Part shown: positions 12,679-64,000 of the stretch, one piece after another | Numbering within the stretch: the stretch's first letter is position 1 | Layout: each line of letters begins with the position of its first letter | DNA from: an uncultured Chloroflexia bacterium | Lineage (GTDB): Bacteria; Chloroflexota; Anaerolineae; CG2-30-64-16 | Assembly: GCA_963810095.1 (NCBI GenBank) | Contig: CAWEMM010000011.1 | Span: forward strand, 64,001 to 128,000 | Length of the DNA stretch: 64,000 nt | Direction of reading: 5' to 3' | Translations under genes and position numbers: made by a program | Notes under the pieces: generated by a model | What the model was told of the DNA's origin: nothing | Seen by the model: the letters and a program-made list of their open reading frames with translations, nothing else | The model's database searches: none

Positions 12679-14465
12679 ATGAGCCACCCCCATGACCGGT
12701 CCGCAAATCTCGTCGATATCCTGGTCCAGCGCGCCGAGCGTTCCGGTGGGGACCTGGCGTTCCGATTCCTCGCGGATGGCGAGGCGGACGAACAGGAACT
12801 CACCTACGCTGAGGTTGTGGAACGAGCGGGCCGCGTCGCCACAACTTTGCGGGAGGCCGGCTGCGGTGGTGGACGAGCAATCTTGGTGTATCAGCCCGGC
12901 CTCGACTATATCACCGGGTTTCTGGGGTGCCTGATGGCCGGCGTCGCGGCCGTGCCCGCGTATCCGCCCTGATCCGTACCGCATGGAGCGCACCTTCCCG
13001 CGCTTCCAGGCCATCGTCAACGATTCGCTGCCCGCGGCCATCCTCAGCACCTCCATGATCCTCGAACTGGCGGGCGACCTATTCGACGAGTTTCCCGATT
13101 TTGCAGGCATTGCCCGCATCGCGACGGATGCGCTGCCGGCCGACGGTGGTGTTACCTGGCGCCGCCCGGCGATCACCGGGAGCACCGTGGCATTCCTGCA
13201 GTACACCTCAGGCTCGACCGCCGACCCGAAAGGCGTCATGCTGACGCACAACAACCTCATGGCGAACCTCGAGCTGATTCGTCACGTCTTCGCCATCCAT
13301 CCGGGTTCAACCGCCGTCATCTGGCTGCCTCCATACCATGATATGGGCCTGATCGGCGGCATCCTCGAACCGCTCTACTTCGGCATGCCCTGCACGTTGA
13401 TGTCGCCGCTCGACTTCCTGCAGCGGCCCGTCCGCTGGTTGAACGCACTGTCAAGGTACGGTGCGACCATCAGCGGCGGCCCGAACTTCGCCTATGACCT
13501 GGTCGCCCGCAAAGTCACCCCCGAACAGAAGGCCTCGCTCGACCTGAGCCAGTTGGGAAGTCGCCTTCAACGGCGCCGAGCCGGTGCGCAAGGAGACCAT
13601 CGAGCGCTTTTCTGCAGCCTTCGCCGAGTGCGGCTTCCGCAAGGAAGCGTTCTACGCCTGTTACGGACTGGCCGAGGGGACGCTCATTGTCAGCGGCGGC
13701 ACCGCTCTGACGCCGCCGGTCTATACTACCGTGAGCGCGGCTGAGCTGGGAGGAGGGCGGGCTGTTCCAGTCGCCGAAGGAAGCCCCGACGCGCAGGATC
13801 TGGTCGGCTGCGGCAGGACGCTGCCCGACCAGACGATCCTGATCGTCGATCCGGATACTCTCGAGCCCTGTGCTGCGGGCATCGTCGGCGAGATTTGGGT
13901 CTCGGGCGCCAGCGTGGCGAAGGGCTACTGGCAGAAGCCGGAAGAATCCGAGCAAACCTTCTGTGCGGGCATCGCCGGGGACAAAGCGACCTCGCCCCGT
14001 TCCTTTCTCAGGACGGGCGACCTCGGGTTCCTGGACGCGTCAGGCAACCTGTTTGTCGCGGGCCGGATCAAAGACCTGATCATCGTCGACGGCCGCAATC
14101 ACTATCCGCAAGACATCGAGCTGACCGCCGAGAAGTGCCACCCGGCGCTGCGCCCCGGCTGCACGGCCGCGTTCGCAGTGAGCGAAGGCGGCCAGGAGCG
14201 ACTGGTCGTCGTCGCTGAGGTGGGCAAGGGATACCGGCCCGCGCCCGGTGCGGCTCGCCCGGCCGGCGACGGTGGAGACTTGGACCCGGCAGAGGTGGCG
14301 GCGTCCATTCGAAAGGCCGTGGCGGAGGCCCACGACCTGCGCACGCAGGCGATCGTCCTGCTCAAGCCGGGAGCAGCGCCGAAGACGTCGAGCGGAAAAA
14401 TCCAGCGCCGGGCGGCGCGGGCCGCCTATCTCGACGGAACGCTCGACACCTGGGGGGCCCAATGA
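12679..14465 (+). CDS. Fatty acyl-AMP ligase (FAAL) starter unit (frameshifts near 12968 and 13550)
   Basis: Three ORF pieces give AGVAAVPAYPP, FLQYTSGSTADPKGV, WLPPYHDMGLIG, CYGLAEGTL, IIVDGRNHYPQDIE and PKTSSGKIQR. Confidence 0.9.
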
Positions 14466-14891
14466 ACGCTACACCTGCGACGACGGACGAAATCCGCGCC
14501 TGGCTTGTCGGGCAGATTGCCGCGATCCTGAGCCTGCCGGAAGACGACGTCGACCCGGATGAAACCTTTGACTCGTTCGGCCTGGCCTCGCCGTGACGCG
14601 GTGAGCTTGTCGGGCGACCTGGAAGACTACCTGAGCCGGCGCCTCTCGCCCACCTTGCTCTACCAGTACCCGACCATCAACAAGCTGGCCGAGCACCTGG
14701 CGGCAACGGGGCGGGCACGACCTACACCAAGCGAGCACAGCGCCCCGGCAGCGCAGACAGGCCCAAGCCCGGTGGAACCAACCGAGACACCTGCCGTGGT
14801 CAATTGGCCGGGAGACGACCCGGCGAGCGCGCTGTCGGAGGACGAAGCGGAAGCCGCTTTGCTCCGAAAGTTGCTGGAACTCGGTGAATGA
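14462..14891 (+). CDS. Stand-alone acyl carrier protein with C-terminal docking-like helix (frameshift near 14590)
   Basis: ATGA overlap with FAAL; EIRAWLVGQIAAIL...FDSFGLAS/RDAVSLSGDLE...LLYQYPTINKLAEHL; tail LSEDEAEAALLRKLLELGE. Confidence 0.85.
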
Positions 14892-14943
14892 TGAAACATT
14901 CATCTTCTGGTGCGCGGATATTCACCTCGGTTGCAAGCGCATT

Positions 14944-14952: not shown

Positions 14953-15043
14953 TCGACGATGAGGAAGGTGTGACCCTGCCGGTCTTCCTGCGGAGCGCGG
15001 TACATAGGCCCGCGAGTCGCTCGCTCAAAGGTTAGGCTTCTCT

Positions 15044-18000
15044 ATGGTCGAGTCTGGCAACAAGAATCCACAGCGGCCAACGTCGCGCCGGCCGCAGACA
15101 CCGCGCGGGCCGACTCGGCGACGCTGACGCGCGCCCTGCTTGCGATCGAGAAGCTCCAAGCGCGCCTGGATGCCGCCGAGCGGGAGAAGACGGAACCTAT
15201 CGCCATCGTCGGCATGAGTTGCCGCTTCCCCGGCGCGCCCGACGTCGAGCCTATCTGGGCGCTGCTGCAAAACGGGGTCGATGCGATCGGCGAGGTCCCA
15301 CCCGACCGCTGGGACGTCGACGCGTACTACGATCCCGAGCCCGGCGCACCCGCCCAGATGGTACACGCGCTGGGGCGGCGTTCATCCGGGACGTCGACCG
15401 GTTCGACGCCGCAGTTTTTCGGCATCTCGCCGCGCGAGGCCAGCCGCATGGACCCGCAGCAGCGCTTGCTGCTCGAGTGTGCGTGGGAAGCGCTGGAGCG
15501 GGCGGGGCTGGCGGTAGAGAAGCTGGCGGGCAGCCGGACCGGCGTCTTCGTCGGCATCAGCCAGGTCGACTATAGCCTGATCCAGTTCGAGGATCGCACG
15601 AAGCTCGACGCCTACGCGGGCACGGGCAACGCGCTGTGCATCGCGGCGAACCGCCTCTCCTACCTCTACGATCTTCGCGGGCCCAGCGTGGCGCTGGACA
15701 CGGCTTGCTCCTCCTCTCTGGTCACGACCCACCTGGCCGTCGAAAGCCTGCGGCGCCGCGAGTGCGACCTGGCACTGGCCGGCGGCGTCAACCTGATCCT
15801 CTCCCCCGAGTTGTCGATCACCTTCTCGCACGCGCACATGATGGCTGCCGACGGCCGGTGCAAGACGTTCGACGCGGCGGCCGACGGGTACGTGCGCGGC
15901 GAGGGATGCGGCGTCCTGGTCCTCAAGCGCCTCGGCGACGCCGAGCGTGATGGCGACCGGATCGTCGCCGTGATCCGCGGCAGCGCGGTCAACCAGGACG
16001 GCCGCTCGAACGGGCTCACTGCGCCCAACGGGCTGGCGCAGCAGGCCGTCATCCGCGAGGCGCTCGCCAGGGCACACGCTCGAGCCCGCGACCAGGTGAC
16101 CTATGTGGAGGCGCACGGCACCGGCACGATCCTGGGCGACCCAATCGAGCTCAATTCGCTTGCGGCGGTGATGGGAAGGCCGCGAGCGCAAGTGCCTCGT
16201 CGGCTCAGTCAAGACGAACATCGGCCACCTCGAAGCAGCCGCGGGCGTAGCCGGGCTCATAAAGATCGTGCTGATGCTGCAGCACGCCGAGGTTGCGCCG
16301 CATCTCCATTTCAAGCAGATCAACCCCTACATCCCGATCGACGAAATGCCGCTTGCCATCGCAACCGGGGCCCAACCCTGGCCTGAAGGTGCACCCTACG
16401 TCGCAGGCGTTAGCTCGTTCGGGTTCGGGGGGACGAACGCCCACGTCATCCTGGCAGCCGCGCCGGTTCGTGCCACCGCCACGCCCGCCGAAGCAAACGG
16501 ACCCCTCCCGCAGCCGGAGCGCACGCATCACCTCCTAGCGCTCTCGGGACAAACTCCGGCGGCCTTGAGCGCCCTGGCCGGGGCCTACGCACAGGCGCTG
16601 GAACGCCCGGACGCTCTGGCTGCCCCCGACCTGTGCTACACCGCGAATGCGGCCCGAAATGGGCTGCGCACGCGAACAGCGTTGGTGGCTCGGGATGGCG
16701 CCGAACTCGCGCAGAAGCTGCGTGCATTGGCTGCGGATACCCCACCCGAGATCAGGGCTCGCCGCGGCAAGGTCGCGTTCCTGTTTACGGGCCAGGGCAG
16801 CCAGTATGTCGGCATGGGCCGCAGCCTGTACGAGACCCATCCGGCCTTCCGGGCTGCCATAGACCGGTGCGACGCGCTGCTGGCGCCCGTCCTTCCCCGC
16901 CGCCTGCTCGACGTGCTCTACTTTGGCGACGAAGCGACGCAGGCCCTGCTCCACGAAACGACGTACACGCAGCCGGCCCTGTTTGCCATCGAGTACGCGC
17001 TGGCGCAGCTGTGGCTCTCGTGGGGGGTGCAGCCTCACTACCTCATTGGTCACAGCGTGGGCGAGTACGCGGCTGCCGTCGTCTCCGGCGTCTTCAGCCT
17101 CGAAGACGGCCTGCTGTTGTTGGCGGCGCGCGCCCGGCTGATGGGCCGCCTGCCGCACGACGGCGACATGGCCGCCGTCTTCGCCGATCCGCAGACCGTG
17201 CTTGCGTTGTTAGGCGACCAGGGCGAGGTGGGCTTGGCCGCCATCAACGGGCCAAAGAGCGTCGTCATCTCCGGCAGGCGCGAGGCGATGACCGCCGCGG
17301 TCGCCCGGCTTGAAGCGGCCGGACTCACGGTCCGCCCCATGCAGGTATCGCACGCGTTCCATTCGCCGCTCATGGATCCGATCCTCGACGAGTTCGAGGC
17401 TGCCGCGCGCCGGGTCAGGGCTCGGCCGCCGCAGATTCCCATCCTCTCGAACCTGACCGGGCCCCTTCTGCAGGAGGCGCCCGATGCCGGTTACTGGCGG
17501 CGCCACGTCCGCGAGGCGGTGCAGTTCAATGCAGGCATGCAGGCGCTGGGGCAAGCCGGCTGCCGTGTGTTCGTCGAGATGGGACCGAAGCCAACGTTGA
17601 TCGGGATGGGCAAGCGCGCGCTGCAGGAGGCTCTGCCGGGGCACGCGGCGCTCTGGCTGCCCTCACTCAAGGCGCCGGATGCGGCGGCAGGCGCGGGCAA
17701 ATGGCCGGCCAATGACTGGGCCGTGCTGCTCGAAAGCCTGGGCGAGTACTGGTCGGCCGGCAACGACGTGGACTGGGCCTCCTTCGACGCGCCGTATGGC
17801 AGGCGCCAGGAGTCCTGGCCCCCACCTATCCCTTCCAGCGCGAGCGCTACTGGAACGAGTCGCCGTATGCGGCACTGCGGCGCAAGGGCTGGCTCGGCGG
17901 GGCGATCGATGGCGTCGACCGCGGGGCGGGCTTGGAAGACGCGGCGGGGTTGGAACGCGAAGACGCACAGGAAATCGAAGCGCGCGAAGCACGAAGCCGC

Positions 18001-21000
18001 GAAGCGCCGGCCGTGACGCGGGCGGAAGTCCTGGCTGCCCCGGCCGAGACGAGGCCGGCCCTGCTCGTCGATGCGATCCGGACACATATCGCCGGCGTGC
18101 TCGATCTCCCCATCACGCGCATCACCGCCGACCAGCAGCTCAATCACCTGGGTCTCGACTCGATCATGGCCATCGAATTGAAGGGCCGGGTCGAGGCGGG
18201 CCTCCAGGTTGAACTGCCCATCGCGGTGCTGCTCGCAGGCCCCACGATCGAGGAGTTGGCGGGCACCTTGCTCGACCTGCTGGCCGGCGGGGCGGCCGGC
18301 GCGGCGGATGCACCCCCACTGGTGGCAGAAGAAGCACCGGACGACGCCGAAAATCGGGATTATCCCCTGTCGGCCGGCCAGGCTGCGATGTGGCTGCAGC
18401 ACCAGGTCGCGCCGGGCAGCGTATACAACCCGGTCTATGCGGCCAGGGTCGTGGGCGAGGTCGACATCGAGCGGCTGAGGCTCGCCTTCCAGCGGCTGGT
18501 CGATCGCCACCCCGCGCTGCGCACGACCTTTCACTCCGTCGCCGGCAGTCCCGTCCAGCGGGTCCATGCGACGATGGCGGTGTGCTTCGAGACCCTGCCC
18601 GCAAACGAGCCCGTGGATGCGGCGGACGCCGGTTCGCTGGAAGACCGGCTGGGCGCCCTGGCCTATCGGACGTTTGATCTCGAAAACGGGCCGCTGCTGC
18701 GCGTCTACGCGCTCGAGCGGGCGCGTCCGTCGGGAGCGCACGAGCACGTCCTGCTGCTGGCAGCGCACCACATCGTCGTCGACCTGTGGTCGCTCGCCAT
18801 TTTGGTCAGCGAAGCCGGCGCTCTGTATGCGGAGCCCGCTGCGGAGCTGGCGCCCGTCCCGCTGCGCTATACGGATTTTGTGCGCTGGCAGGGCGACCTC
18901 CTGGCGTCGGTATCGGGCGAGCGGATGCTGGCATACTGGCAGGACAAGCTGGCAGGCGAACTGCCCGTGTTGGAGCTGCCCACAGATCGCGCTCGCCCCA
19001 CTGTCCAGACCTTTGCGGGGTCCGTGGAGTCGCTGGATCTGGGCGAGGAGTTGACCCTGTCCGTCCGGGTCTTCAGCGAAGCGGCAGGCGTCACGCCGTA
19101 CGTCACCCTGCTTGCGGCCTTCCAGACGCTCATGCATCGCTATACGAACCAGGAAGATATTATCGTCGGGTCGCCCACCACCGGACGGAGCCGGGCGGCC
19201 CTTGGCGGGATCGCGGGCTATTTCGTGAGCCCGATTGCCGTGCGCGTGAGCTTTGCCGGGCGTCCGACGGGCGCGGACCTGGTGCAGCGCGTGCAGGAAG
19301 CGGCCCTGGGCGGGCTGGCTAACGCGGACTACCCGTTCCCACTCCTGGTGGAAAAGCTGCACCCCCGCCGCGATCCCTCGCGGACGCCCGTGTTCCAGGT
19401 CATGTTCGCGCTCCAACGCAGCCACTTGCTATACGAAGCAGGGCTGTCGCAGTTCGCCACGGGCGAATCGGGCATGCAGATGGCGCTGGGCGGCAAATCC
19501 GGCCCCACGCTCCGGCTCGAGTCGGTTGCCGTGCGCCAGCGGATGTCACCGTTCGACATGACGCTGCTCGTTGCCGACGGCGAGAAGTCGCTGGGCGTTG
19601 CCATCGAGTACAATCTGGACCTCTTCGACCCTGCGACGGCCCGCCGTATGCTCGGCCACTACAAGACGCTGCTCGCCGGCCTGGTCGCAGCGCCAGAGCG
19701 GGCCGTCGCCGAACTCCCGTTGCTGACGGCACCTGAACGCACGCAGATCCTCGGCGGGTGGAGCGCGGGTGCACTGCCCGACGCGCCCCTTCGCCACGCC
19801 TGCATCCACGGGGCGTTCGAGGCTCAGGTCGACGCGACGCCGGATGCGATCGCTCTGCACTACGATGCGGGCGACGGCGCACCTCCGCTTGTCTGGACCT
19901 ATCGGGAGCTGGACCAGCGTGCTAATGCGGTGGCGCACAGGCTCAGCGCGCTGGGCGTCGGACCCGAGCAGCGGGTGGCACTCTGCTTCGAACGGTCGCC
20001 CGAGATGATCGTGGCGATCCTGGGCACGCTGAAGGCCGGGGGCGCGTATATCCCGCTCGACCCTGCGGCGCCGCAAGAACGCCTTGCCCGGATCCTGGCC
20101 GATGCCCAACCCGTCGCCTGCCTCACGCACACGGCGGCACAGCAGGTCTTTCCGGGACTGGCGCAGGCTCACGTGCTTGTCGATGCCCTCGAGCCAGCAG
20201 CACCTGGGCTGGCCGATCGCCCCGCGTCGAACGCCGGCCCCCATAACCTGGCCTATATCATTTACACCTCCGGTTCGACAGGCACGCCCAAGGGCGTCAT
20301 GCTCGAACACGCGGGGGTTGTCAACCTGGTGCAGGCGCAGTTGGTCGCGTTCGACCTGGCGCCCACCGACCGGGTTTTCCAGTTCGCGTCGTATACCTTC
20401 GACGCATCGGTGTCCGAGATCTTCATTGCGCTGACCTCGGGTGCGGCGCTGCACGTCGGACGCCGCGACGTCGTGCTTTCTCCTGACAACCTGGCGCGGG
20501 TGCTGGCACGCGAACGGATCACGAACATCACGCTGCCGCCCACGCTGCTGCGGCTGCTGGACCCCGCCGCGCTGCCCCAGCTGCGCACCGTGATCTCGGC
20601 CGGGGACGCCTGTACTCCAGACATTGTCGAGAAGTGGGCGCAAGACCGCCGCTTGGTGAACGCGTATGGCCCCACCGAGACGACCATCGGCCCCACGTAC
20701 AACGTCGTGAGCGATCTTCGCACGGGCACGTCAAGCGGGACGGGCGCCCCCATCGGGCGGGCCATCCCCAACGTCCGCACGTACATTCTCGACCGCAACG
20801 GGCAGCCCCAGCCGCTCGGCGTGCCGGGCGAACTGCACATCGGCGGCGCCGGGCTGGCGCGCGGCTACGTGGGCCGGCCCGACCTGACCGCAGAAAAGTT
20901 CGTGCCTTGCCCGTGGAATCCCGCGCCGCAAGCGCAGACTGGGGAAGATCGACACGATCCTTCTCCCGCGCTGTCGGCTGAATCGGTGCTGTCTGCTCAA

Positions 21001-21870
21001 GCGGCGCTGTCTGCGTCTGGTTCCGGCGCGCGCCTCTACCGGACGGGCGACCTGGCCCGGTGGCTGCCCGACGGCCGGATTGAATTTGTCGGCCGGGCGG
21101 ATTACCAGCTCAAGATTCGCGGCTTCCGGGTCGAGCTAGGCGAGATCGAGGCGGTCCTGAGCAAAGCGCCCGGGATCAAGCAAGCCGTCGTGCTGGCCCA
21201 GCCGGCCCACGGCGACGGAGCCTCGGGGCACAAAAACGGCGCGGCGAACGGCGACGTCAGGCTCGTGGCATGCGTGGCCCAAGACGCCCTACACGGGCCC
21301 TCGGAAGGCGAAGTGCGGGGGTTCCTGCGCAGCCGCCTGCCCGACTACATGATGCCCGCCGCCTTCATTGCCATGGACAGCCTGCCTCTGAACGCCAGCG
21401 GCAAGGTGGACCGGGCGGCCCTGGAAAAAAGCGCAGCCTTGCTCGCGCCGGCAGGTGGCCGGGCAGCGACCGCAGAGTTGGTAGCGCCGCAGAACCAGCT
21501 AGAGCGCGATCTGGCCATGATCTGGCAACAGGTGCTCGGGCTCGAGCGAGTGAGCATCCACGACAACTTCTTCGATTTAGGCGGCCACTCGCTGCTCATG
21601 GCCCAGGCCCACAGCCGCCTGCAGGAGCGCCTCGGCCGCGAGGTGCCCATCGTGGACCTATTCCGCTACCCGACCATTCACCTCCTGGCCGCTTACCTGG
21701 CGGGTGGGGCCGGCGAAGCGGCTCCGGCCAGCGCAGCCCAGCAGGGGCAGGAACGGGGCCAGCAGAAGCGCCAGGCACTGCAACAGCGCGCCGAGCAGGC
21801 TCAGCGCGCGGAGCAGGCTCAGCGCGAACGGATGCTGCAACGCACGCCGCCACGTAAGGGCGGTAGGTAG
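15044..21870 (+). CDS. Hybrid PKS/NRPS 1: KS-AT-ACP-C-A1-PCP (several frameshifts)
   Basis: [37 protein letters not shown] (KS); GHSVGE and HAFH (malonyl AT); [11 protein letters not shown] runs in frame into LGLDSIM (ACP); HHIVVDLWS (C); [11 protein letters not shown] (A); GGHSL (PCP). Start codon approximate. Confidence 0.88.
20968..21015 (+). repeat. In-frame 18-bp imperfect tandem repeat in an A1 loop
   Basis: GCGCTGTCGGCTGAATCG / GTGCTGTCTGCTCAAGCG / GCGCTGTCTGCG ([16 protein letters not shown]). Confidence 0.65.
21784..21826 (+). repeat. In-frame 18-bp tandem repeat (QRAEQA) in the C-terminal docking region
   Basis: CAGCGCGCCGAGCAGGCT CAGCGCGCGGAGCAGGCT CAGCGCG. Confidence 0.7.
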
Positions 21871-21875
21871 ACAAT

Positions 21876-24800
21876 ATGACCGACGACTTCAACGCGGCGA
21901 TGAACCAAGGCGAACAGGCCGAAAACGACCCGCTGTCCAACGGCTGGTCCGAGTTCGACCTCGCCATTGTCGGCATGGCCGGCCGCTTCCCTGGCTCGCC
22001 CGACCTGGACGCGTTCTGGCGCAATCTGGTGGACGGAGTCGAGTGCGTCCGCCGGTTCACGGACGAGGAAGTGGCCGCGGCGGGCGTGGACCCTGCGCTG
22101 AGCAGCCAACCCCACTATGTCAAGGCGGGAGGCGTGCTCGAAGGCGCAGAGTGGTTCGACGCGCATTTCTTCGGCGTTTACCCCCGCGAAGCCGAGATCA
22201 TGGACCCCCAGCATCGTGTCTTCCTGGAGGTAGCGTGGCATGCGCTGGAGCATGCGGGATATGATCCGGCAACCTCCGAGTCGACAGGGGCAGGCGCTAT
22301 CGGCGTCTATGCGGGCTGCGGGCTCAACACCTACCTGATCTACAACCTGGCGCAGAACCGCGAGATTCGCGAGAACGTCCAGGGCTACCAACTGACCATT
22401 GCCAACGACAAGGACTACCTGCCGAGTCGGGTCGCCTACAAGCTGAACCTCCGTGGACCCGCCGTCAACGTGCAAACGGCTTGCTCCACCTCGCTCGTCG
22501 CCACCCACCTGGCCTGCCAGGCGCTGCTGAGCCACGACTGCGACATGGCGCTGGCCGGCGGCGTGACGGTGCGGCTGCCACAACAGGGCGGCTATTTGTA
22601 CCAGGAAGGCGGCATTATGTCGCCCGACGGGCACTGCCGTGCTTTTGACGCACAGGCCGCTGGCACGGTCGGCGGCAACGGCGTCGGCATCGTCGTGCTG
22701 AAGCGGCTGAGCGATGCGCTGGCGGACGGAGACACGATCCACGCGGTGATCAAGGGCACCGCGATCAACAACGACGGCTCGAACAAGGTCGGCTACACCG
22801 CGCCCAGCGTGGAAGGCCAAACCGGGGTGATTTCCGCCGCACACGCAGTGGCCAACGTCGACCCCAGCACCATTTCTTACGTCGAAACGCACGGCACGGG
22901 CACCGCGCTGGGCGACCCGATCGAGATCACCGCCTTGACCAACGCGTTCGGCCTGGCGGCCGGTCCGGATGATCTTCCGGCTCAAACGTGCGCCATTGGC
23001 TCGCTGAAGCCGAACGTGGGCCATCTCGATGCAGCGGCCGGCATCGCCGGCCTCATCAAGACGACACTCGCGCTGGAGAACGGGCAGATCCCGCCCAGCA
23101 TCAACTTCAGTGCGCCCAACCCACAGATCGACTTCGCCAAATCACCGTTTTATGTAAACGACAGGCTGAGCGAATGGCGATCAACGGGCGGCCATCGCCG
23201 GGCAGGCGTAAGCTCGTTCGGCATCGGCGGCACGAACGCGCACGTCGTCTTGGAAGAAGCGCCGCCCCCCGCCCCTGCCGGCGCCTCACGAGCTGCGCAA
23301 CTGCTGGTAGTTTCCGCAAAGACGGAAGCGGCGCTCGACGCAGCCACTGCCAACCTGGCCCAGTTCCTGGCAGACCGTCCGGCAGTCAACCTCGCGGATG
23401 CGGCCTATACGCTCCAGGTCGGACGCCAGCCGTTCGCCTACAGGCGGGTTGCCGTCGTGCGCGATCTGGCAGACGCCTGCGTCGTGCTCGAAGGCCGCGC
23501 GCCCGGCCGTTTGGTCGGCAATGGCGGCGCGGCCGGTGCGACAAGCGTCGCGTTCATGTTCACCGGGCAAGGCAGCCAGTATGCCGGCATGGGGCTCGGG
23601 CTGTACAAGGCGGAACCGGTCTTTCGCGACGCCGTGGATCGCTGTGCGGACATCCTGCGGCCTCACCTCGCGACTGATATCCGGGGCTTGATCTATCCGC
23701 GGGTTGCGGATGGTGCCGACGAACGCCTCAAGCAGACGGCCATGACGCAACCTGCGCTGTTCGTAGTCGAGTACGCGTTGGCGCAATTGTGGCTGGCGTG
23801 GGGCGTGAGGCCCGGCGCGATGATCGGCCATTCGATCGGCGAGTACGTGGCCGCACATCTCGCGGGCGTGATGTCTCTGGACGACGCACTTATGATCGTG
23901 GCGGCCCGCGGACGATTGATGGGCAGCCTGCCCGGCGGCTCGATGCTCGGCCTGCCCCTCGGCGAGGAGGACGCGCACGCGCTGCTGGTCCGCCACCCCC
24001 GGCTCGCCGTCGCCACGATCAACGCGCCCGGCATGGTCGTCGTGGCCGGCCCGGACGAGGCTGTCGAGTCCCTGGAGCAAGAACTGGCCGGCAAGAAGAT
24101 TGCAACCCGGCGGCTGCACACCTCCCACGCGTTCCACTCGGCTATGATGGACCCCATCCTCGCACCCTTCGCCGACGTCGTCCGTCGTGCCCGTCTGAGC
24201 GCGCCCGCCACACCGTATGTCTCGAACGTGACCGGCACGTGGATCACCGCCGCAGACGCGACCGATCCGGCCTACTACGCCCGCCATCTGCGCGGCGCAG
24301 TCCGCTTTGCCGACGGACTGGCCGCGTTGGCCGCCGAACCAAACCGGGCCTTCCTGGAAGTGGGCCCTGGGCCGACGTTGGCAGGCCTGGCCAAGGCACA
24401 CCCGGCGGTGGGCCGGGAGCGCCGTGTCGTGACGTCGCTGCGCCACCCCCGCGAAGCGGCCGACGACCTCGAGTTTATGCTCGGCGCGCTCGGGCAACTG
24501 TGGCTCGGGGGCATTGTGCCGCGCTGGGATGCGGCCGAGGAACGCGACGGTGCGCCGTGGGTCGCGTTCTACGGTGGCCAGAACCGGCACGAGCGGCGTC
24601 GCCGCATTCCGCTGCCCCTATACCCCTTCCAACGCGAGCGCTTCTGGGTGGAGCCCGACACGAAGCTTGGTGCGCCGGCCACGGACGAGAGTCGTGCAGC
24701 CAAGACGGCCGACATAGCGGGCTGGTTCTACGTGCCGTCCTGGCGCCGCATCCCCATGCCCCCGCGCTCCGACGCCTCGGGGTGGCAGGTGCTGGTCTTC

Positions 24801-27800
24801 GCACTCGGGCACGAGGCACTCGGGCACGAGGCACTCGGGGACGAGGCGCTGATGGATGAGGCTCTCGCAGACGAGGCCCACGAGGGCACCGTCCAACTCC
24901 TTGCGGCCCGTGCGTGCGGGCGACCGGTGGTGGTGCGGCCGGGTAGGGGCTTTGCCGAGGGAGCGGACGGCTTCACGGTCGAGCCAGGGGCGGTCGAGCA
25001 GTACGAGGCCCTGTTCCGCGCGCTCGAGGCCGAGGGTCGCCTGCCGCAGTCCATCCTGCACTTGTGGAGCGCGGGGCAGGGTCAGGACGAGAGCGCGGTC
25101 CAGTCGCACGGTTTCGACAGCCTGGTCGCGCTGGCGCGGGCCTGGGGCACCGTTGCCGGCAGCGCCGAGGTCCAGGTCGACGTGGTCACCAGGGGCATCT
25201 ACAGCGTGACGGGAGACGAGCCAACCACGCCCGCCGCGGCGATGATCCTCGGCGCAGCGCGTGTCATCGGGCAGGAGACTCCCGGGATTAAGGTGCGAGT
25301 GGTGGACCTGGCCGCGGGCGAAGAGAATGCAGCCTGGCTGGCCGACGTGGCGTTCACGGAGCACCGGCAGCAGGTCGTTGCGCTGCGCGGCCGGCACTGC
25401 TGGGCGCAAGGCTTCGAGCGGCTAGAGACCGGTTCGCCTGCCGGCGGCTCGTCGCGGCTGCGACAGCAGGGGGTTTACCTGATTACGGGCGGGCTGGGCC
25501 GGATCGGGCTGGTGCTTGCCGCCCACCTCGCCTCAAGCGTGCAGGCGCGGTTGGTCCTTGTGGATCGCATCGCGCTGCCCGAGCGCGACGCATGGCCCCG
25601 ACTGCTGGCGGACGGCGACCCGGGAGAGGACCCCGCGGCCGGGCCGGCCGCGGCGCTCCGAGCCCGCCTGCAGAAGGTGCTGGCGATCGAGGCGGCCGGT
25701 GGGGCGGTCCTCTCGCTCCAGGCCGACGTCGCCGATTCCGCGCAGATGGCCGCGGCGGTGGACGAGACCATTAGCCGGTTTGGTGCACTGCACGGGGTGA
25801 TCCACGCGGCGGGGACCGTGGGACAGGCCGCAATCCGCTCGATTTCAGAGACGGACGCTGCAGTTCGCGAGGCGCAACTTGGGCCGAAGGCCGGCGGTGC
25901 CTACGCGCTGGCCCAGGCCCTCGGAGCGCATGGCGGCGAACTCGATTTCGTGATCCTGATGTCCTCCGTGTCGACCGTCCTCGGCGGCCTTGGATTCGCC
26001 GCGTACGCGGGCGCCAACAGCGTTCTCGAAGCGTTTGCGCTTGAGCAGGCGCGAGCCGGCCACCCGTGGCTGAGCGTGGCGTGGGACGGCTGGGCATTTG
26101 CAGAGGAACGCGCGCTGGGCGCGGCCGCGGCAGGTGCGCTGGCCTTCGCCATCACCCCGGAAGAAGGCGTCGCCGTATTTGACCGGCTGCTGTCCGTCGT
26201 CGACCAGGGCGCAGTCGTCGTGTCGACCGGTGATCTCAATCTGCGACTTGTGCGCGCACAGGCAGGCGAGACGCGTCCCAAGCCCGCGGCGGGCGGCACG
26301 GAGAAACCGTCCGGCAAATACGCCCGACCTCACATGCGCACAGCGTACGTGGAACCGTCAGACGACGTGGAACGCGCGATCGCGGCCGACTGGGAAGGCA
26401 TCCTGGGGATCTCGCCGGTCGGCGTGCACGACGACTTCTTTGAGCTCGGTGGGCACTCGCTCCTGGCGACGCAGCTGGTGTCGCGGCTACGCGACGCGTA
26501 TCATGTCGAACTACCGCTGCGAAACCTGTTTGAGACGCCCACGATCGCCGGCCTGGCCGCGGCGATTCGCCGCGCGCAGGGTGCGGGCGCCGGGGCAGCC
26601 GAGGGACCGGCCGGTCCCAGCGCCCGCGAAGCTATCCTGCCGCTCCCCCGCGACGGCGAGCTGCCGCTGTCGTTCGGCCAGGAACGGTTGTGGTTCCTCG
26701 ACCAACTGGCCCCCGGCAGCGCCCTGTACAACAACTTCGCCGCCCTGAGGCTCAACCCCACGGGCGAGGGCGCACCCCTGGACCCGGCGCGGCTCGAATG
26801 GGCGCTCAACCAGGTTATCGCCCGCCACGAGGTGTTGCGCACGGTCTTCGGCGAGCGCGACGGTAAACCGACGCAGACCATCTTGCCCGCCATTCCGGTC
26901 TCGGTCCCCGTGATCGACGTCGCTACGATGGAGGACCCGCAGGGGGCCGGGCAGCGCGTGGAGGACCTGGCGCGGGAAGAGGCGCGGGCGCCCTTCGACC
27001 TGGGCAAGGGCCCACTCCTGCGCGCGAAGCTGCTGCGCACGGGCGCGGACGAATATGTCTTGTTCTTCACCATGCACCACATCGTATCTGACGGGTGGTC
27101 GGTGGGCGTGCTCATCCAAGAGGTCGTCCGGTTCTACGAATCGGGCGGCGACACGGTTCTCGCGCCGCTTCCAATCCAATATGGGGACTACGCGGCGTGG
27201 CAGCGGGAGTGGCTGGGCCGCGTTCGGGAAGAGCAGCTGGCGTACTGGCGCGGCCGGTTGACCCCCGAGCCTGAGCCGCTGGAGCTGGCAACCGACCGCC
27301 CCCGGCCCGCGGTGCAAACCTCGAACGGGGCCAACTACTGGTTCAGCGTCGCCCCGCGCACGCATCGCAAGCTGGAGGCGCTGGCGCAAGGCGAGGGCGC
27401 CACCCTGTTCATGGCGCTGCTGGCCGGGCTCCAGGCCCTGCTGCACCGCTACACAGGCCAGGAAGACATCTGCGTCGGAACACCGGTGGCGAACCGGGAC
27501 CGGAGCGAGACCGAAGGTTTGATCGGCTTCTTGCTCAACACGTTGGTGCTCCGCACCGATCTGTCGCCGGCGCCCGGTGCAGCCGGTGTCAGCTTCCGCG
27601 AGCTCCTCGGCCGGGTGCGTGAGGTGGCCTTGGGCACGTACGCGCACCAGGACCTGCCGTTCGAGAGCCTGGTCGAAGGTGCTCTGCACGGCGGTCTCCA
27701 GCCGGCCCGGGATATGAGCCGCTCGCCCTATTTCCAGGTCATGTTCGACCTGCAGGCCGCGCCCCTCGCAGGGATCACGCTGCCGGGCATGTCGCTCGCA

Positions 27801-39693: not shown

Positions 39694-46469
<6,776 letters not shown>

Positions 46470-46473
<4 letters not shown>

Positions 46474-49400: not shown

Positions 49401-52400
49401 GGTGAGGCCACGATAGAGACGGGGCGGCCTGCTGCAACTGAGCTGCGCGCACATCTGCGCCAACACCTGCCCGAGTACATGGTGCCGGCTGTCTTCGTGC
49501 CAATGACGTCCTTCCCGCTGTCGCCCGCCCAAAAGGTGGACCGGCGCTTGCTGCCTCCACCGAACCAGGTCGCAGGGAATGAGTACGTCGCGCCACGCAC
49601 GCCGACCGAGGAGCTCCTGGCGAGCGTCTGGACGCAGCTTCTGAACGTACCGCGTGTGGGCGCCGACGATAGTTTCTTCGAGCTGGGCGGGCACTCGCTT
49701 TCGGCCACGCAGCTTGTCTCCCGCGCCCGGGCAGCATTTGGCGTCGAGGTGCCGCTGCGGGCGCTGTTCGAGACGCCCACCTTGTCGGGGCTCGCAGCCG
49801 CGATTGACCACCTGCGGGCTGCCGCGCTGGACACAGTTGCGCCCCCGATTGCCAGCGTGCCGCGACAGGGGGATGCAGACGGCAAAGTGCGCCTACCGCT
49901 CTCCTTTGCGCAGCAGCGCCTGTGGTTCCTCGATCAGTTCGAGGGTGCCGAGAACGGGGGCACCTCGCTCTACAACATTCCGGTCGCCGTGCGCTTGAAG
50001 GGCCGCCTGGACGGTGCGGCTCTGTCGAACACGCTCGCAGCGCTTGCCGAGCGGCACGAGTCGCTGCGTACCTCGTTCGAGAGCGTCGACGGGAAGCCGG
50101 TCCAGGCCATCGCGCCGCACGGCGCGCTCTCCCTCAACGTAGTCGACCTATCGGACGTGGAGGAGGCTGAGGTAGAGGCGGCGATCATGACCCACGCCGA
50201 GGCGGAGGCCGGCAGGCCGTTCGTCCTTGCCAGTGGCCCCTTGGTTCGGGTTACGCTCCTGCGCCTGCACGCCGAGGAGCATGTCCTGCTCTTTACGATG
50301 CACCACATAATCTCGGATGGGTGGTCCAGCGGCGTCCTGATCCGCGAGTTCGGCGAGTTGTACGCGGCGCTCGCGTCGGGCGCAAACATTCAGCTTGCTC
50401 CACTCGCCCTGCAGTATGCGGATTATGCCGTCTGGCAGCGGAAGTGGCTACTCGACCGGGCGGGCAAAGACGACCGGGACGAGGCAGCGACGCCGTTGCA
50501 GAAACAGCTGGCTTACTGGCGCGAGGCCCTGAAGGGTGCGCCGGCGCTGCTCGAGCTGCCCACCGACCGGCCCAGGCCGGCGGTCCCATCGCACGGCGGA
50601 GCGGCCATTGCATTTGAGCTGCCGGCGGACCTCACCGAGCGCGTGCGGCGGCTTAACCGCGAGGAAGGTGCCACTGTCTTCATGACCTTGATGGCCGCTT
50701 TCCAGGCCCTGCTGTCGCGCCTGAGTGCGCAAACGGATATCTTGGTGGGGACCCCGGTCGCCAACCGCACGCATGCGGAGTTGGAAGGGATTATCGGTTT
50801 CTTCGTCAACACGCTAATCATGCGGGCCCAATTCGGCGACGGGCCCTCGTTCCGCCGGCTGCTGGGCCAGGTTCGAACCGCGGCACTCGGCGCCTACGCA
50901 TACCAGGACGTCCCGTTTGAGAAGCTCGTGGACGAGCTCGAAGTCGTGCGGGACGCCAGCCACAGCCCCCTGTTCCAGGTGATGTTTGTCTGGCAGGAGC
51001 AGCGTCAGAGCGCCATGTCCGCGCCCATCACGCTGCCCGGCCTGAGCCTTTCGCCGATCCCAGTTCACGGCGGCACGGCCACGTTTGACCTCACCCTCGC
51101 GATGGCCGACGGCCCGCGGGGGTTGAGCGGTTGGCTCGAGTACTCCACCGACTTGTTCGATCGCTCCACAGCAGAACGCTTCGTCCGGCTGTTCGAGACC
51201 CTGCTGACCAACGTCCTGGCCACTCCCGACCTCCCGATCGCCCAGGTTCCGCTATTGACCGCCGAGGAACGCCGCATGGTCGTCGAGGACTGGAACGACA
51301 CGGCGGTTCCGGTTCCGGCGGTGTCGCTCCATGGGGCGTTCGAGCAGCAGGTCGCCCGCACTCCAGACGCCGTGGCGCTCGTGTTTGCCGGCGACGGCGG
51401 ATCGCGGCTGCGCTGCGAAGTCACGTATGCCGAGCTGAACCGCCGCGCGGACGGGGTGGCAAGCGAGCTGCAGCGGCTCGGCGTACGGCGAGAAGAGATC
51501 GTCGCCATCTCGGTCGAGAAGTCGGTCGAGCAGATCGCGGGCTTGCTCGGCATCCTGAAGGCGGGCGCGGCCTACTTGCCCATCGACCCCGCGTACCCCA
51601 CCGAACGCATTGCGTACCTGTTGGCCGACTCCGGTGCACAGGTCTTGCTCACGCAATCGCACCTCGCACAAGGCTTCGCCGGGCTGCACCTGCGCCACGT
51701 CGTCTGCCTTGACGAGTTCGTGGAGGCTCAGCGCGCCGGGCAAGCAGCCCTGGCGTCGCAGCCTCTGGCCCCAGCCCCGCACACGAGCGCGGACAGCCTG
51801 GCCTATGTGATCTACACCTCGGGGAGCACCGGGCAGCCCAAAGGCGTCATGGTCGAGCACCGCAACATTGTCAACCATGCGCATGCGCTGATGGCGCAAA
51901 CCGGCATCGGCCCGGGCGACCGGATGCTCCAGTTCGTCTCCCTGAGCTTCGACGCGGCCGGCGAGGAGTTTTACCCCACCCTGCTCTCGGGTGCGACCCT
52001 TGTCCTGCCCGCGGACAGCCAGGCGCTGCTGGGAACCGAGCTGCCGGCCTTCTGCGAGGTGCATGGCATCACCCTCCTGCACATGCCGGCGACGGCATGG
52101 CACGGCGTGATTGACGGCCTGTCGGCCCAGGGGGAGGCGTGGCGCGGGCCACTTCGCCTGCTGATGCTGGGGGGCGATGCCCCGGACCCGGCGAGGCTCA
52201 TTGCGTTCCGGAAGCTCCTCGACAGGGAAATCCCGTTCATTAACCTCTACGGCCCAACCGAAGCGACCATCACCGCAACAACATTCCAGACGACCGGCCT
52301 CACGGCGCTGCAGAAGGTGCCGATCGGCCGTCCCATCGCCAATGCGGCGGTCTACGTGTTGGACGCGGCCGGGCAACCCTCGCCTATCGGCGTGCCGGGC

Positions 52401-54650
52401 GAAATCTACATCGGCGGCGCCGGCGTCGCACGGGGCTACCTCGGGCGACCCGAGCTGACGGCAGAGAAATTCGTACAGGGCGAGAACCTGACCGGCAGCC
52501 CGGCCACCCGCCTCTACCGCACGGGGGATCTCGCGCGCTGGCTGCCCGACGGTAATCTGGAGTTCGTTGGCCGGGCCGACGACCAGGTCAAGGTGCGGGG
52601 CTATCGCATCGAGCTGGGCGAGATCGAGGTCGCGCTTGCCGCGCACCCAGAGGTGAAGGAGTGTGCGGTGCTGGCCCGGGCGGACGCCGGTGATGGGGGA
52701 CGGCGGCTCGTGGCATACTTCGTGCCCGCAGCCGATCCGGCGCCTTCGGTCGCAGATCTCCGGGCATTCCTGTCCAAGATCATTCCGGACCACATGGTGC
52801 CTGCGGTCTTCGTGCGGCTGCCGGCGCTGCCGCTCAATGCGCACGGCAAGGTCGATCGCCGCGCTCTGCCCGCACCGTCGGAGGCCCAGCAGGCCGACAG
52901 CGGGGCCGAGTTCCTGGCGGCCACGACCCCGGCCGAAAGGGCGCTCGCCGACATCTGGCAGCAGGTGCTCGGCGTGCCGCACGTCGGGGCTCACGACAAC
53001 TTCTTCGAGCTGGGCGGCGATTCGATCCTGTCCATCCAGGTCGTGTCGCGGGCGCAACCGGGCGGGACTGACCATCACGCCCAAGCAGCTGTTCCAGGCG
53101 CCGACGCTCTCCGCGCTGGCCGCGCTGGCAGGCACGGCCACGACCGGCTCTGCCGAGCAGGGGCCCGTGACGGGCCCGGTCCCGCTTACGCCGATTCAAC
53201 GCTGGTTCTTTGAACCAGGCATGTGGGGCGGCGAGGGGGCGAACCCCAACCACTGGAACCAGTCCGTACTGCTTTCCGTGCGCCAACAGCTTGACGGGGA
53301 GAGCTTGCGGGCCGCCGTCGTCGCGCTCGTAGAACACCATGACGCGCTCCGGCTGCGCTTCGTCGAGACGGATGACGGCTGGCAGGCGGAACATGCGCCT
53401 GCAGACCCGTCGCTCCCCACACCTTTCGACCATCTGGATCTCTCGCAGCTGGCCGAAGCAGAGCTCTCGTCCGCGGTCGAACGGCTGTCGGCCGAGGCGC
53501 AGAAGAGCCTGGATATTTCTCGCGGTCCGCTGCTCCGTGCGGTATACTTCGACGCCGGAGCCAAGCGCCCCGGGCGCCTGCTGCTCGTCATCCACCATCT
53601 TGCGGTCGACGGCGTATCCTGGCGGGTGCTTCTCGAAGACCTGCAGAATGCGTACGGCGAGCATATGCAGACCGGCCGGGTACAGCTGCCGCCCAAGACA
53701 AAGTCGTTCAAGAGCTGGGCCGAAAGCCTGGCATTGCACGCACGGTCCGAAGCGGTCGCCGGCGAACTCGACTACTGGCTGGAGCGGACCGGCGGGTGGA
53801 TTCCGTCCCTCCCCACCGACCACCCGGGCGGTGCGGCGGACAACACGGAAGCAGGTGTGGCGCAGATTGGCGTCACGCTGTCGCAGGAAGACACCGAGGC
53901 GCTGCTGACCCAGGCAAACGCGGCGTATCACACCGAGAGCCAGGACCTCCTGCTCGCCGCCCTCGCACAGGTCATAGAGCAGTGGACCGGGACGCCCACG
54001 CTGTACGTACATCTTGAGGGCCACGGCCGCGACGAGATCGACGAGGCCGAAGACGTATCGCGCACGATCGGGTGGTTCACGACAATGTACCCCGTGCGGC
54101 TCGACCTTCCGTGGGGCAGTGCCGATGCCCCGGGCGAGGCGCTTGTGGCAGTGAAGGAACAGCTTCGTGCGGTGCCCCGCCACGGGCGCGGTTACGGCCT
54201 GCTGCGCTACCTCGGCAGCGACGATGCGCGGGACGCGCTGGCATCCCAGCCCGAGCCCGAGATTTCGTTCAACTACCTGGGGCAGTTTGACCAGGTGCTC
54301 GCCGGAAGCGGCCAGGAAGCACTGCTCGGGCCCGCACCCGAGACCGCAGGACCGGACCGGGCCCCCGAGAACCGCCGCAGTCACCTGATCGACGTGACGG
54401 CCGCGGTTGCCGGGCACCGTCTCGGCGTGTCCTGGAGCTACAACCGGTCCCTGCACGACGAAGCGACCGTGCAGCAGTTGGCGCAAACGTATCTGCAGGC
54501 CCTGGCAAGGTTGATCGACCACTGCCGTTCGCCGGAAGTTGGCGCCTATACGCCCTCGGATTTCCCGCTAGCCGAGCTTGATCAGAAGCAGCTCGACAAA
54601 GTGCTGAAGCAGATGCAGCCCGGCCCCGCGCCGGCTGCTTCGGAGAACAC

Positions 54651-54654
<4 letters not shown>
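46470..54654 (+). CDS. NRPS 5: C-A7-PCP-C-A8-PCP-E (frameshift near 53055)
   Basis: HHIITDGWS, HHIISDGWS, GGHSL, GGDSI, then E motifs HHLAVDGVSW, EGHGRDE, RTIGWFT and YTPSDF; ATGA overlaps at both ends. Confidence 0.93.
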
Positions 54655-61474
<6,820 letters not shown>

Positions 61475-61478
<4 letters not shown>

Positions 61479-64000
61479 GCTCAAACCTTGATCTGTCCGT
61501 GCCCAACCCTGAGGCGGGATCCGAGGACATGCTCGACGAGCTGATCGTCTTCCCCATGTCCTACGGGCAGCAGCGTATGTGGTTCCTGGACCAGTTCCAG
61601 CCAGGAAGCCCGTTCTACAACATCCCGTCGGCGATCCGGCTGTCCGGTGCGCTGGACGTCGCTGCGCTGCGCCGCGCGCTGGACGAGATCGTCGCGCGCC
61701 ATGAAGCCCTGCGCACCACCTTTGGCCGCGTCGAGGGCGAGCCCTCGCAGGTGATCGCGCCGAGCCTGCGCCTCGACGCGCCCCTGATCGACCTGAGCGC
61801 GCTCGCGGACACGGAACGCGAGGCCGAGGCCTTACGTCTCGCGCGTGAAGAGGCCCGCCAGCCGTTTGACCTGACGAAGGGCCCGCTCCTGCGCGCCAGG
61901 CTCATCCGCCTGGCGCCCGAAGAACACCTCGCCCTGATCACCATGCACCACATCGTCTCGGACGGCTGGAGCATGAGCCTCTTCGTGCGCGAGTTGAGCG
62001 TGCTTTACAGCCGCGTTCCTTGGGGGCCGGCCGTCGCCCCTGGCGCCTCTGCCGATCCAATACGCCGACTATGCCGAGTGGCAGCGGGAGTGGCTGCAAG
62101 GCGAGGTGCTGCAGGGCGAGATTGCCTTCTGGAAAGAGAAGCTCGGAAACCCGCCGCCGCCCGTGCTCGAGCTGCCCGGCGACCGGCCGCGGCCCGCAGT
62201 CCAGACGGCCAACGGCTCGACGCTGCACACGAAGCTGCCGCGTTCGGTGAGCGACCAGGTGCAAGCCCTCGGACGCCAGGAGGGCGCCACGGTCTTTATG
62301 ACCTTGCTGGCTGCCTTCAACGCCCTGCTCTACCGCTACACCGGCCACACCGACATCTGCGTGGGCACGCCGATCGCTAACCGCCGGCAGGCCGAGCTTG
62401 AGCCGCTGATCGGGCTGTTCATCAACACGCTCGTGCTGCGCACCCAACTCGACGGCGACATGACGTTCCGCGAACTGCTCCGCCGCGTCAAGAACGTGGC
62501 GCTGGAAGGCTACGCACACCAGGATTTGCCCTTCGAAATGATCGTGGACGCGCTGCAGCCCGACCGCGACATGAGCCACTCGACGCTCTTCCAGGTGATG
62601 TTCATCCTGCAGAACGCGGGCCTCAAGGCGCAGTCGGCGCCGGGTCTCTCGCTGAAAATGGTAGAGGTCGACGCAGGCACCTCGACGTTCGACCTGACCC
62701 TGAATTGTTCGGAGCAGACGGACGGGCTGGCGACCTCGCTCGAGTACAACACAGACATTTTCGACCGCGCCACGATCCAGCGGCTGCTTGGCCATTTCGA
62801 GACGCTGCTCACCGCGGCGCTCGACCGGCCGGACACGCCGCTAGCGCTTCTGCCACTGCTCGGCGCGGCCGAACGCGAGCGGATGCTTGTCGAGTGGAAC
62901 GCGACCGGCGGCGACGTTGCGCCGGGTGGAGCCGCAGCGCTCTGCATCCATGATCTGATCGAGGCGCAGGCCGCCGAGACGCCAGACGCCCTCGCGGTCA
63001 TCGTGCCCGAGATCGCGGGCCGTCGGGCACAGAGCATCACGTATGCGGAACTCGACCGGCGCGCCAACCAGTTGGCAAGCGCGCTGAGTCGAATCGGCAT
63101 CGGACCCGAATCGACCGTCGCGGTCAGCGCGGAGAAGTCGGTAGAGATGATCGTGGGGCTGTTGGGCGTGCTAAAGGCAGGGGCCGCATACCTCCCGATC
63201 GATCCCAACTACCCCGCCGAACGCATTCGCCACATGCTAAGCGATTCCGGCGCGTCCGTGCTGCTCACCCAGTGGCGCCTGCTGACGCAATTGCCCCTGG
63301 ACGAAGACAGCGCCGATCGCAGCGCGCTATCGCATGTCCTCTGCCTCGATGCCGACTGGCCTTCGATTGGGGAAGAGCCCGCCACGAAACAAGAAGTTGG
63401 GGTTCGGCCCGACAACTTGGCCTACGTCATCTACACGTCCGGTTCCACCGGCCAGTCAAAGGGCGTGCTGGTCGAGCATCGCAATCTCGTCAACGCCTAT
63501 TATGCCTGGGAGGGCGCGTACACGCTGAAACAGCCCGTCAAGACGCACCTGCAGATGGCGAGCTTCTCATTCGACGTCTTCACCGGCGACCTTGTACGCG
63601 GGCTGTGCTCGGGCGGAACCCTGGTCCTGGCGCCGCGCGAGCTCCTCTTGCAGCCGGCAGAGCTCTACGCGCTGATGCAGCAGACGCATGTCACCTGCGC
63701 CGAGTTTGTGCCCGGCGTCCTACGGCCGCTGATGCAGCATCTGGACGACACGGGGCAGAAGCTGGACTTCATGCAGGTCTTGGCATGCGGGTCAGACAGC
63801 TGGTACATGGGCGAGTACGCCCGCTTCCTGCGCTTCTGTGGGCCAGACACCCGGCTTATCAACTCGTTCGGACTGACCGAAACGACCATCGACACCTGCT
63901 ACTATGAAACTCGGAGCGACGGCGGCAAGGGGAGCTCTTCGGCTGCCCTCGGCGCGGACCAGATCGTCCCGATCGGGCGGCCCTTCGCCAACCAGCGCAT
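61475..64000 (+). CDS. NRPS 7 (partial): C-A11, continues beyond the window (frameshift near 62015)
   Basis: FPMSYGQQRMWFLDQ and HHIVSDGWS, then in the shifted frame LPIQYADYA, YTSGSTGQSKG, FSFDVFTGD and INSFGLTETTID. Confidence 0.9.

Follow-up and report, generated by a model that had tools for sequence, protein, structure and literature searches.

Puwainaphycin-type assembly lines of cyanobacteria carry an aminotransferase/oxygenase for a beta-amino fatty acid. In these and related cyanobacterial lines (puwainaphycin/minutissamide, laxaphycin, microginin, hapalosin), a FAAL (fatty acyl-AMP ligase) and an acyl carrier protein (ACP) prime a polyketide synthase (PKS) with a cis-acting acyltransferase (AT), which is followed by a nonribosomal peptide synthetase (NRPS) (PMC11837247; PMC accessions here and below refer to excerpts of the articles). 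The gene cluster described here begins in the same manner and was found in a window of 64,000 nucleotides (G000:C11:64001-128000) from the genome of an uncultured sediment Anaerolineae bacterium (G000; 6.13 Mb, 16 contigs, 88.5% complete). A first-pass annotation of the window had remarked on a cyanobacteria-like FAAL-ACP-PKS start in a different host, and the host indeed belongs to the Chloroflexota. Unlike the cyanobacterial lines, the G000 cluster has no aminotransferase/oxygenase for a beta-amino fatty acid, and it further differs in its second PKS module after residue 1, its two sulfotransferases, its 14 residues and its Chloroflexota host.

The cluster also resembles the didemnin, hapalosin, thalassospiramide and burkholdac lines, in which an adenylation-thiolation (A-T) pair is followed by ketosynthase (KS)-AT-ketoreductase (KR)-ACP and a 4-amino-3-hydroxy acid is predicted (PMC12081711). 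In G000, in contrast, the corresponding unit comes first after the lipid tail, with 13 further residues behind it. We know of no module order common to the G000 cluster and the didemnin-type lines.

The sulfotransferase (ST) embedded in the line shares with the STs of CurM (4GBM) and Ols (4GOX) the carrier-ST order and an aligned 3'-phosphoadenosine 5'-phosphosulfate (PAPS) loop, Glu and Lys. It differs from both in standing mid-line between a peptidyl carrier and a condensation (C) domain, in having no alkene-forming thioesterase (TE), and in a module of its own that offers no beta-hydroxyl. OciA, of the cyanopeptolin 1138/oscillapeptin E pathway, has an NRPS-embedded ST for the N-terminal side chain (PMC2533009); the Oci ST goes with a glyceric-acid starter, whereas the G000 ST is internal and follows an Ile/Val module. 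SulN of sulfazecin N-sulfonates a carrier-bound peptide in trans (PMC11298585) but, unlike the embedded G000 domain, is a stand-alone enzyme that leads to a beta-lactam. The sulfolipodiscamide PKS/NRPS lipopeptide cluster of Entotheonella, which contains a sulfotransferase and yields a sulfoureido product (PMC12858407), is a precedent for side-chain N-sulfonation; compared by description, it has four PKS modules and another peptide part. No ST with the T-ST-C arrangement of G000 stands among the characterised STs listed in the excerpt of PMC11143521.

The G000 cluster is real, complete and probably functional, and undescribed although it is built on the known FAAL-PKS-NRPS plan. We consider it likely, judging from sequence, that it is a lipopeptide assembly line of uncultured Anaerolineae, that it belongs to an undescribed gene-cluster family, and that its product keeps its sulfate. 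The 32 open reading frames (ORFs) of the window were scanned with Pfam and motif searches, and A-domain codes were read by alignment. Read from 12679 on the plus strand, the domains follow in the order of the rows of Table 1, and the line continues 16 kb beyond the window end to near C11:144100, giving a total of ~67 kb with 2 PKS and 14 NRPS modules. Outside the window, the last NRPS gene proceeds as T11-C-A12(Asn)-T-C-A13(Tyr-type)-T-C-A14(Tyr-type)-T-TE, with the codes DLTKIGEVG for A12 and DASTIAAIG for A13 and A14 (A13 read over a frame switch). All 20 condensation-family matches of the genome lie inside the cluster. FAAL and its cognate ACP precede the first KS, the modules are collinear with intact carriers and a release domain (frameshifts being judged assembly errors), the carrier serines are intact, and the KS, KR, ST and TE motifs are retained. 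NCBIfam fatty acyl-AMP ligase families ranked top among the ligases for the FAAL, below their cut-offs because the ORF is split. No aminotransferase domain was found in the cluster proteins; a class III aminotransferase at 8541-9848 belongs to the hem operon. The cluster is not a chance arrangement, because Pfam E-values of its domains in the window ORFs reach 1e-243 and collinear orthologous clusters occur in other genomes.

These data bear out the layout given by the first-pass annotation. Pfam, NCBIfam and motif scans agree on the FAAL-initiated hybrid PKS/NRPS lipopeptide line it had proposed, and its two PKS modules, at least 11 NRPS modules, two epimerization (E) domains and one ST were all recovered in the window. 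The genes it had called co-directional and partly ATGA-coupled all lie on the plus strand, with four overlaps (14462, 46470, 54651 and 61475). Alignment reproduced the nine letters of each of the codes it had read by eye (11/11), and the Lys motif it had assumed for A11 is at 64497, just past the window end. Its remark that no TE was yet present holds for the window, the TE lying further downstream.

Table 1. Features of the G000 cluster. Positions are those of the window; extended positions equal the C11 position minus 64000, and loci beyond the window are L001 and L002.
Feature	Position	Strand	Remarks
FAAL, stand-alone, two frame switches	12679-14465	+	Pfam AMP-binding and AMP-dom_DIP2-like; 50-66% to intact G014 FAAL
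ACP, stand-alone, frame switch at 14592	14462-14891	+	tblastn to G014 ACP in two frames
PKS1/NRPS1: KS-AT(malonyl motif)-ACP-C-A1(DASTIAAIG, Tyr-type)-T	15045-21870 (start approximate)	+	No KR, dehydratase (DH) or enoylreductase (ER); two frame switches
PKS2/NRPS2: KS-AT(malonyl motif)-KR-ACP-C-A2(DQENIGAVT, Arg-like)-T	21876-30056	+	Intact ORF, 2726 aa
NRPS3: C-A3(DAFFMGGTF, Val/Ile)-T-ST-C-A4(DAQDFGMVD, Gln/Glu)-T-E	30104-39668	+	Family signature protein; frame switch within E
Embedded CurM/Ols-type ST, between T3 and C4	33797-34483	+	PF13469, E 6.5e-25
NRPS4: C(DCL)-A5(DASTIAAIG)-T-C-A6(DAWTIAAVC, Phe-type)-T	39694-46473	+	
NRPS5: C-A7(DAWILGAVC)-T-C-A8(DAEHMGLIT)-T-E	46470-54654	+	Frame switch between T8 and E
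NRPS6: C(DCL)-A9(DAEHVGAVT, Arg-like)-T-C-A10(DAWTVAAVC, Phe-type)-T	54651-61478	+	
NRPS7 start: C-A11(DVGEAGSID, Orn-type)	61475-64000	+	Gene reaches G000:C11:139714
Type I TE	Extended 74953-75672 (C11:138953-139672)		After three further modules
ST2 (stand-alone sulfotransferase), major facilitator superfamily (MFS) transporter, type II TE, MbtH, phosphopantetheinyl transferase	C11:139714-144103		Outside window, after NRPS7
Pentapeptide-repeat gene, SdrD_B proteins, HlyD/FtsX/FtsX/ABC exporter	C11:144152-158861		Probably co-inherited

The predicted product is 3-oxoacyl-(Tyr-statine)-Arg-like-Val/Ile-D-Gln/Glu-Tyr-Phe-X-D-X-Arg-like-Phe-Orn-Asn-Tyr-Tyr, linear or cyclic, of an estimated ~2.1-2.4 kDa. 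The FAAL would charge the ACP with a fatty acid and PKS1 would extend it with malonate; both ATs carry GHSxG and HAFH motifs, which we read as malonyl-specific. Since PKS1 is devoid of reductive domains, a 3-oxoacyl tail is predicted. Module 1 would add Tyr, which extension and reduction by PKS2 would turn into a statine-type unit (4-amino-3-hydroxy). Modules 2-14 would then add the residues from the first Arg-like one to the last Tyr in the order given, residue 7 apparently being hydrophobic and residue 8 a D-residue of basic type, and the TE would release the chain. In G135, a genome of Candidatus Zhuqueibacterota, the code is DASTIAAVC at position 1 and DASTVAAVC at position 13; G000 has DASTIAAIG at both. 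We take the two G135 codes to be textbook Tyr codes, which supports Tyr for DASTIAAIG, and the Phe, Orn and Ile/Val calls are likewise presumed from the cluster codes. The KR of PKS2 keeps Lys, Ser, Tyr and Asn, as do its homologues, no DH is present, and the order A-T then KS-AT-KR-ACP matches the NRPS-PKS(KR) pair proposed as the statine route in didemnin, hapalosin and thalassospiramide (PMC12081711). In PMC12283262, DAQDLGVVDK is given as Glu or Gln and DLTKIGEVGK is listed among Asp/Asn domains; the Arg consensus there is matched by A9 at 8/9 positions and by A2 at 7/9, and six code fragments had no match in one supplement of that article.

The first-pass product needs additions and corrections, as the predicted chain has 14 residues ending Orn-Asn-Tyr-Tyr and residue 4 may be Gln or Glu. 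Its Tyr-derived statine-type unit is upheld by the retained KR residues and the missing DH. Its beta-ketoacyl tail is also predicted for G000 but is not a family constant, since G014 has KS-AT-DH-ER-KR at the PKS1 place and G007 has an extra reducing module. Its description of the product as cationic and aromatic ignored sulfation; given two conserved sulfotransferases, "cationic" may be wrong.

The best PDB matches of the embedded ST are CurM (4GBM, E 2e-44) and Ols (4GOX, E 6e-40). In the CurM alignment the PAPS loop, Arg, Glu and Lys, for which we assume the catalytic roles of CurM, are kept, and one CurM His position is Asp. A literature search on the CurM residues brought up no relevant paper, and an AlphaFold model from a 6-row alignment was unsuccessful (pLDDT 49.9). 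The domain is under purifying selection: its dN/dS of 0.025-0.16 (five pairs), a rough estimate with dS near saturation in 4/5 pairs, compares with 0.13-0.29 (four pairs) for the next C domain and is lower in 4/4 comparable pairs. An APS kinase gene is present in G000. The A3 code before the ST is of Val/Ile type, with no hydroxyl-bearing residue, in 8/8 carriers of the host family, and the ST cannot act on the side chain of its own module because that module loads Ile/Val. With the chain on T3, the ST would use PAPS to sulfate a group that lies upstream of residue 3, probably the nitrogen in the side chain of residue 2, the statine hydroxyl or a phenol, and the sulfate would be retained. The residue-2 nitrogen is our tentative first choice, short of an even chance; the statine 3-OH is possible but doubtful, and a Tyr phenol is unlikely, as is any other group. 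The nitrogen is slightly favoured over the statine hydroxyl or phenol because in G140 the Arg-like module 2 itself bears the ST, and because Glu239 basic-type modules bear the extra STs of G140, G176 and G155 as well as one of the two STs of G323. ST2, which resembles mycobacterial enzymes of Stf type, probably would sulfate a second site in trans.

An ST profile search returned 1071 proteins at E 1e-30, and the top 253 proteins of this and a further search contained 231 STs with a readable preceding code, a set biased toward the query and including the NRPS3 protein of the window itself. STs in ST-C-A-E proteins followed Ile/Val/Leu codes in 35/58 cases and Thr/Ser/Tyr codes in 8/58, with Gln/Glu as the following code in 37/58. 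STs in other proteins followed Thr/Ser/Tyr/Hse codes in 105/173 cases and Ile/Val/Leu codes in 10/173. A plasmid search found three ST-bearing proteins, all below 50% identity; the one inspected was unrelated. An Agrobacterium vitis plasmid (L129:7934-19158) encodes an adenylation-domain protein with an embedded ST adjoining a diaminobutyrate transaminase and cysDN, which places this ST type in a cultured organism. Three embedded sulfotransferases occur together in a short line of genome G216 (C49:12950-36255), FAAL-KS-AT-KR-ST-C-A(Tyr)-T-ST-C-A-T-ST-C-A(Lys)-T-TE.

Several points weigh against the interpretation as a functional line with a retained sulfate. The KR-based statine route is itself without experimental verification (PMC12081711). 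The substrate calls rest on code look-alikes. To our knowledge no exact code match exists for A2, A7, A8 or A9, and a literature search for the A2, A8 and A9 codes found no paper. A nitrogen acceptor is not universal, as the other G323 ST and 2/3 of the G216 STs follow non-basic units. The single 20-row clade formed by the family STs (support 91) comes from a quick tree in which that value is unstarred. The cluster has ~19 frame switches, and other reads directly contradict just one of them, at 14592. Finally, E1 carries HHLAVDR for HHxxxDG (Arg replacing Gly) in 7/7 family copies seen, the Zhuqueibacterota copies seen having Gly; the D-configuration of residue 4 thus rests on the downstream DCL domain, C5 and C9 grouping in the post-epimerase clade. 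E2 is canonical, and the two D residues of the first-pass annotation are supported with that qualification.

The alternative that survives best, though quite improbable, is an activating role of the embedded ST: the statine 3-OH would be sulfated and the sulfate then lost by elimination, leaving an unsulfated product with a vinylogous Tyr (alpha,beta-unsaturated amide) warhead. Its appeal is that the activating STs of CurM and Ols are the nearest solved structures (the Ols chemistry is described in PMC11837247), that the hydroxyl is beta to the amide carbonyl, and that PKS2 has no DH. However, the ST is not followed by a decarboxylating TE and no KR-bearing ACP precedes it, so the ACP-ST-TE termination of CurM/Ols is not found here; embedded STs elsewhere follow many residues unable to eliminate in this way, and the second ST suggests that sulfate is retained. 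A dehydrating C domain after the ST was considered and is unsupported: C2-C4 group with ordinary C domains and have canonical motifs, C4 falling with the ordinary LCL domains with HHxxxDG kept.

Retention of the sulfate thus remains the preferred reading, and the arrangement that it concerns is conserved. Carrier counts below come from related genomes and are not independent. The embedded ST was found in 8/37 genomes of the host family, in 5/17 genera. A search for ST2 in 61 genomes gave strong matches in just those eight, with two further weak matches. All seven other family carriers have the same order wherever assembled. The conserved codes are Tyr-type at position 1, DQENIGA[VI]T at 2, Ile/Val at 3, Gln/Glu (with E) at 4, Phe-type at 6 and 10, Orn-type at 11, Asn at 12 and Tyr-type at 13, whereas those at positions 5, 7, 8, 9 and 14 vary. 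When species genomes were searched with the ST alignment, 22 loci were obtained. Seven of them, from Anaerolineae/Anaerolineales and at 65-83% identity, coincide with the carriers of the host's own genus and family, which places the host in the Anaerolineae. Class-wide the ST matched in 17/401 genomes. Six of the 12 ST-bearing genomes outside the family were examined; the family order is kept in G270, G465 and G518 and not kept in G216, G323 and G244. In Candidatus Zhuqueibacterota, also the phylum of G061, the ST matched in 17/151 genomes; nine were examined, of which G061, G135, G176, G187 and G109 have the line in complete or near-complete form (13-16 amino-acid modules where complete), G140 has a variant line and G103, G155 and G158 have fragments. 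A Bryobacterales genome (G062) holds fragments with the same units. The design therefore recurs in uncultured bacteria of several phyla and is not a lone cluster.

Some copies depart from the common layout. In G061 (C10; L080:13081-19998), residues 2044-2140 form a PilZ domain (PF07238, E 3e-10) between A and T of module 8, a possible cyclic di-GMP input. The lines of G014 (C11:82308-87677) and G024 (C3:741535-746508), as well as those of G036, G135, G176 and G187, end in C-A(Thr)-T-E without a type I TE and with only a type II TE nearby; the terminal C of G014 and G024 groups with DCL domains though no E precedes it. Near 803900-804700 of G024:C3 an ACP and KS are present, an adjoining FAAL was not found, and a peptide ABC transporter lies upstream. 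In G004 (C279, C157, C326; contig order inferred), which has 24 condensation matches, positions 4 and 5 are separated by roughly five additional modules (Thr, Ile, others).

Slightly less credible still is that the cluster makes an already described compound or closely copies a characterised cluster. The first-pass annotation did not recognise it as described, and a literature search, with MIBiG and subscription journals outside its reach, likewise gave no description of the cluster, its codes or a matching compound. The named close homologues of the signature ST and of ST2 derive from metagenome-assembled genomes, and the isolate-labelled proteins P0006 and P0009 have another architecture or are partial on a 7.8-kb contig. 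We know of no nonribosomal lipopeptide from Anaerolineae or Zhuqueibacterota. The excerpts of PMC11748557 and PMC7472256 give only survey counts of NRPS/PKS clusters in these groups.

A marginally smaller chance is given to decay of the cluster in G000, with real frameshifts and with modules 5, 13 and 14 as misassembled repeats. A frame census placed eight intragenic switches in the window (~12900, 13500, 14592, 16125, 17775, 38925, 53025 and 61950), ~11 more follow downstream, and the DNA of A5, A13 and A14 is 96-97% identical (window 41098-42730 versus G000:C11:133461-135241 and 136828-138605). Against decay, the in-window frameshifts look like long-read errors, because hemA and hemB, housekeeping genes that also lie in the window, are split as well, orthologues of the cluster genes in relatives are mostly long open frames, and the ACP frame change at 14592 shows a one-base difference in short-read contigs of 2/4 runs compared (runs that may include the source sample and cover the stretch in parts only). 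The short-read contigs have gaps near 17648-18011. The line of G019 likewise ends Tyr-Tyr-TE, the dN/dS of the ST is low, and the family conclusion is independent of G000. The repeat identity, together with a GC-skew dip at 40-44 kb of the window, rather suggests recent replacement of the A domain at position 5; the position-5 code of relatives (DAEHMGLIT) occurs at position 8 in G000. Least probable of all is that the STs are passengers and the product an unsulfated cationic lipopeptide, for although the residue loaded by the ST's own module offers no acceptor group and the CurM His position is Asp, the ST is under purifying selection, accompanies ST2 in all eight carriers and is also present in the Zhuqueibacterota and Bryobacterales copies.

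A protein with the carnitine-acyltransferase fold (PF00755) accompanies the family. It was found in 5/8 carriers and 0/53 non-carriers among the 61 genomes searched, and in 11/151 Zhuqueibacterota genomes, eight of which are among the 12 with an ST match of E 1e-66 or better. The gene lies within the cluster in G014, G019, G061, G140, G187 and G158, and in a peptide-transporter operon in G000 (C7:303635-305320), G004 and G007. At the same-genus loci L088:9635-11320 (G000:C7), L089:5093-7144 and L090:8180-10240, a peptide ABC operon has this gene, in opposite orientation, between its binding protein and its permeases. The protein resembles choline/carnitine acyltransferases (1T1U) in a fold-level sequence match (E 9e-13); it differs from the active enzymes in that the His of EHSxxDG aligns with Phe in 6/6 cluster-associated copies, and it is therefore probably not an ordinary acyltransferase. 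A role as acyltransferase on the statine hydroxyl was accordingly lowered, as the catalytic His is missing; our guess is that it binds the carnitine-like statine unit. A literature search on carnitine acyltransferases with NRPS found nothing relevant.

The downstream FtsX permease has 60-73% orthologues in 6/7 other carriers and at most 50% matches in 29 non-carriers, so that the FtsX system is a plausible exporter; the MFS transporter and/or this MacAB-type ABC system would export the product. The pentapeptide-repeat gene occurs in 4/7 other carriers and is absent from the Zhuqueibacterota loci examined; its reading as Qnr-type self-resistance is weak, the best PDB matches being designed or cyanobacterial repeats. 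Flanks common across genera (upstream FGGY-YhhN/hem/DUF72; downstream SdrD_B, HlyD, FtsX, ABC) suggest inheritance with loss. Upstream of and outside the cluster, at 2064-11122 of the window, are a helix-turn-helix regulator, an AhbD-like radical SAM gene and a hem operon (hemA, C, B, E, L, Y).

The product would probably be a secreted antagonistic or surface-active lipopeptide whose statine unit possibly inhibits aspartic proteases. A bolder proposal, which we regard as unlikely in its entirety, is that uncultured bacteria of sediment and sludge share an ancient family of sulfonated statine lipopeptides that spans several phyla. In this proposal an on-line ST of CurM type would N-sulfonate the preceding basic residue at its side chain, hiding the charge while the peptide is made or exported, and the catalytically dead PF00755-fold protein would serve in immunity or as a carrier by binding the carnitine-like 4-amino-3-hydroxy unit. 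A T-ST-C unit whose preceding residue lacks an acceptor would be a compact case of on-line tailoring at a distance, and the acyltransferase-fold partner is a candidate new accessory protein. The intact copies in G061, G135, G024 and G014 allow prediction of a synthesisable structure, and the maintenance of a 13-14-residue scaffold across phyla implies that its function in these communities is under selection.

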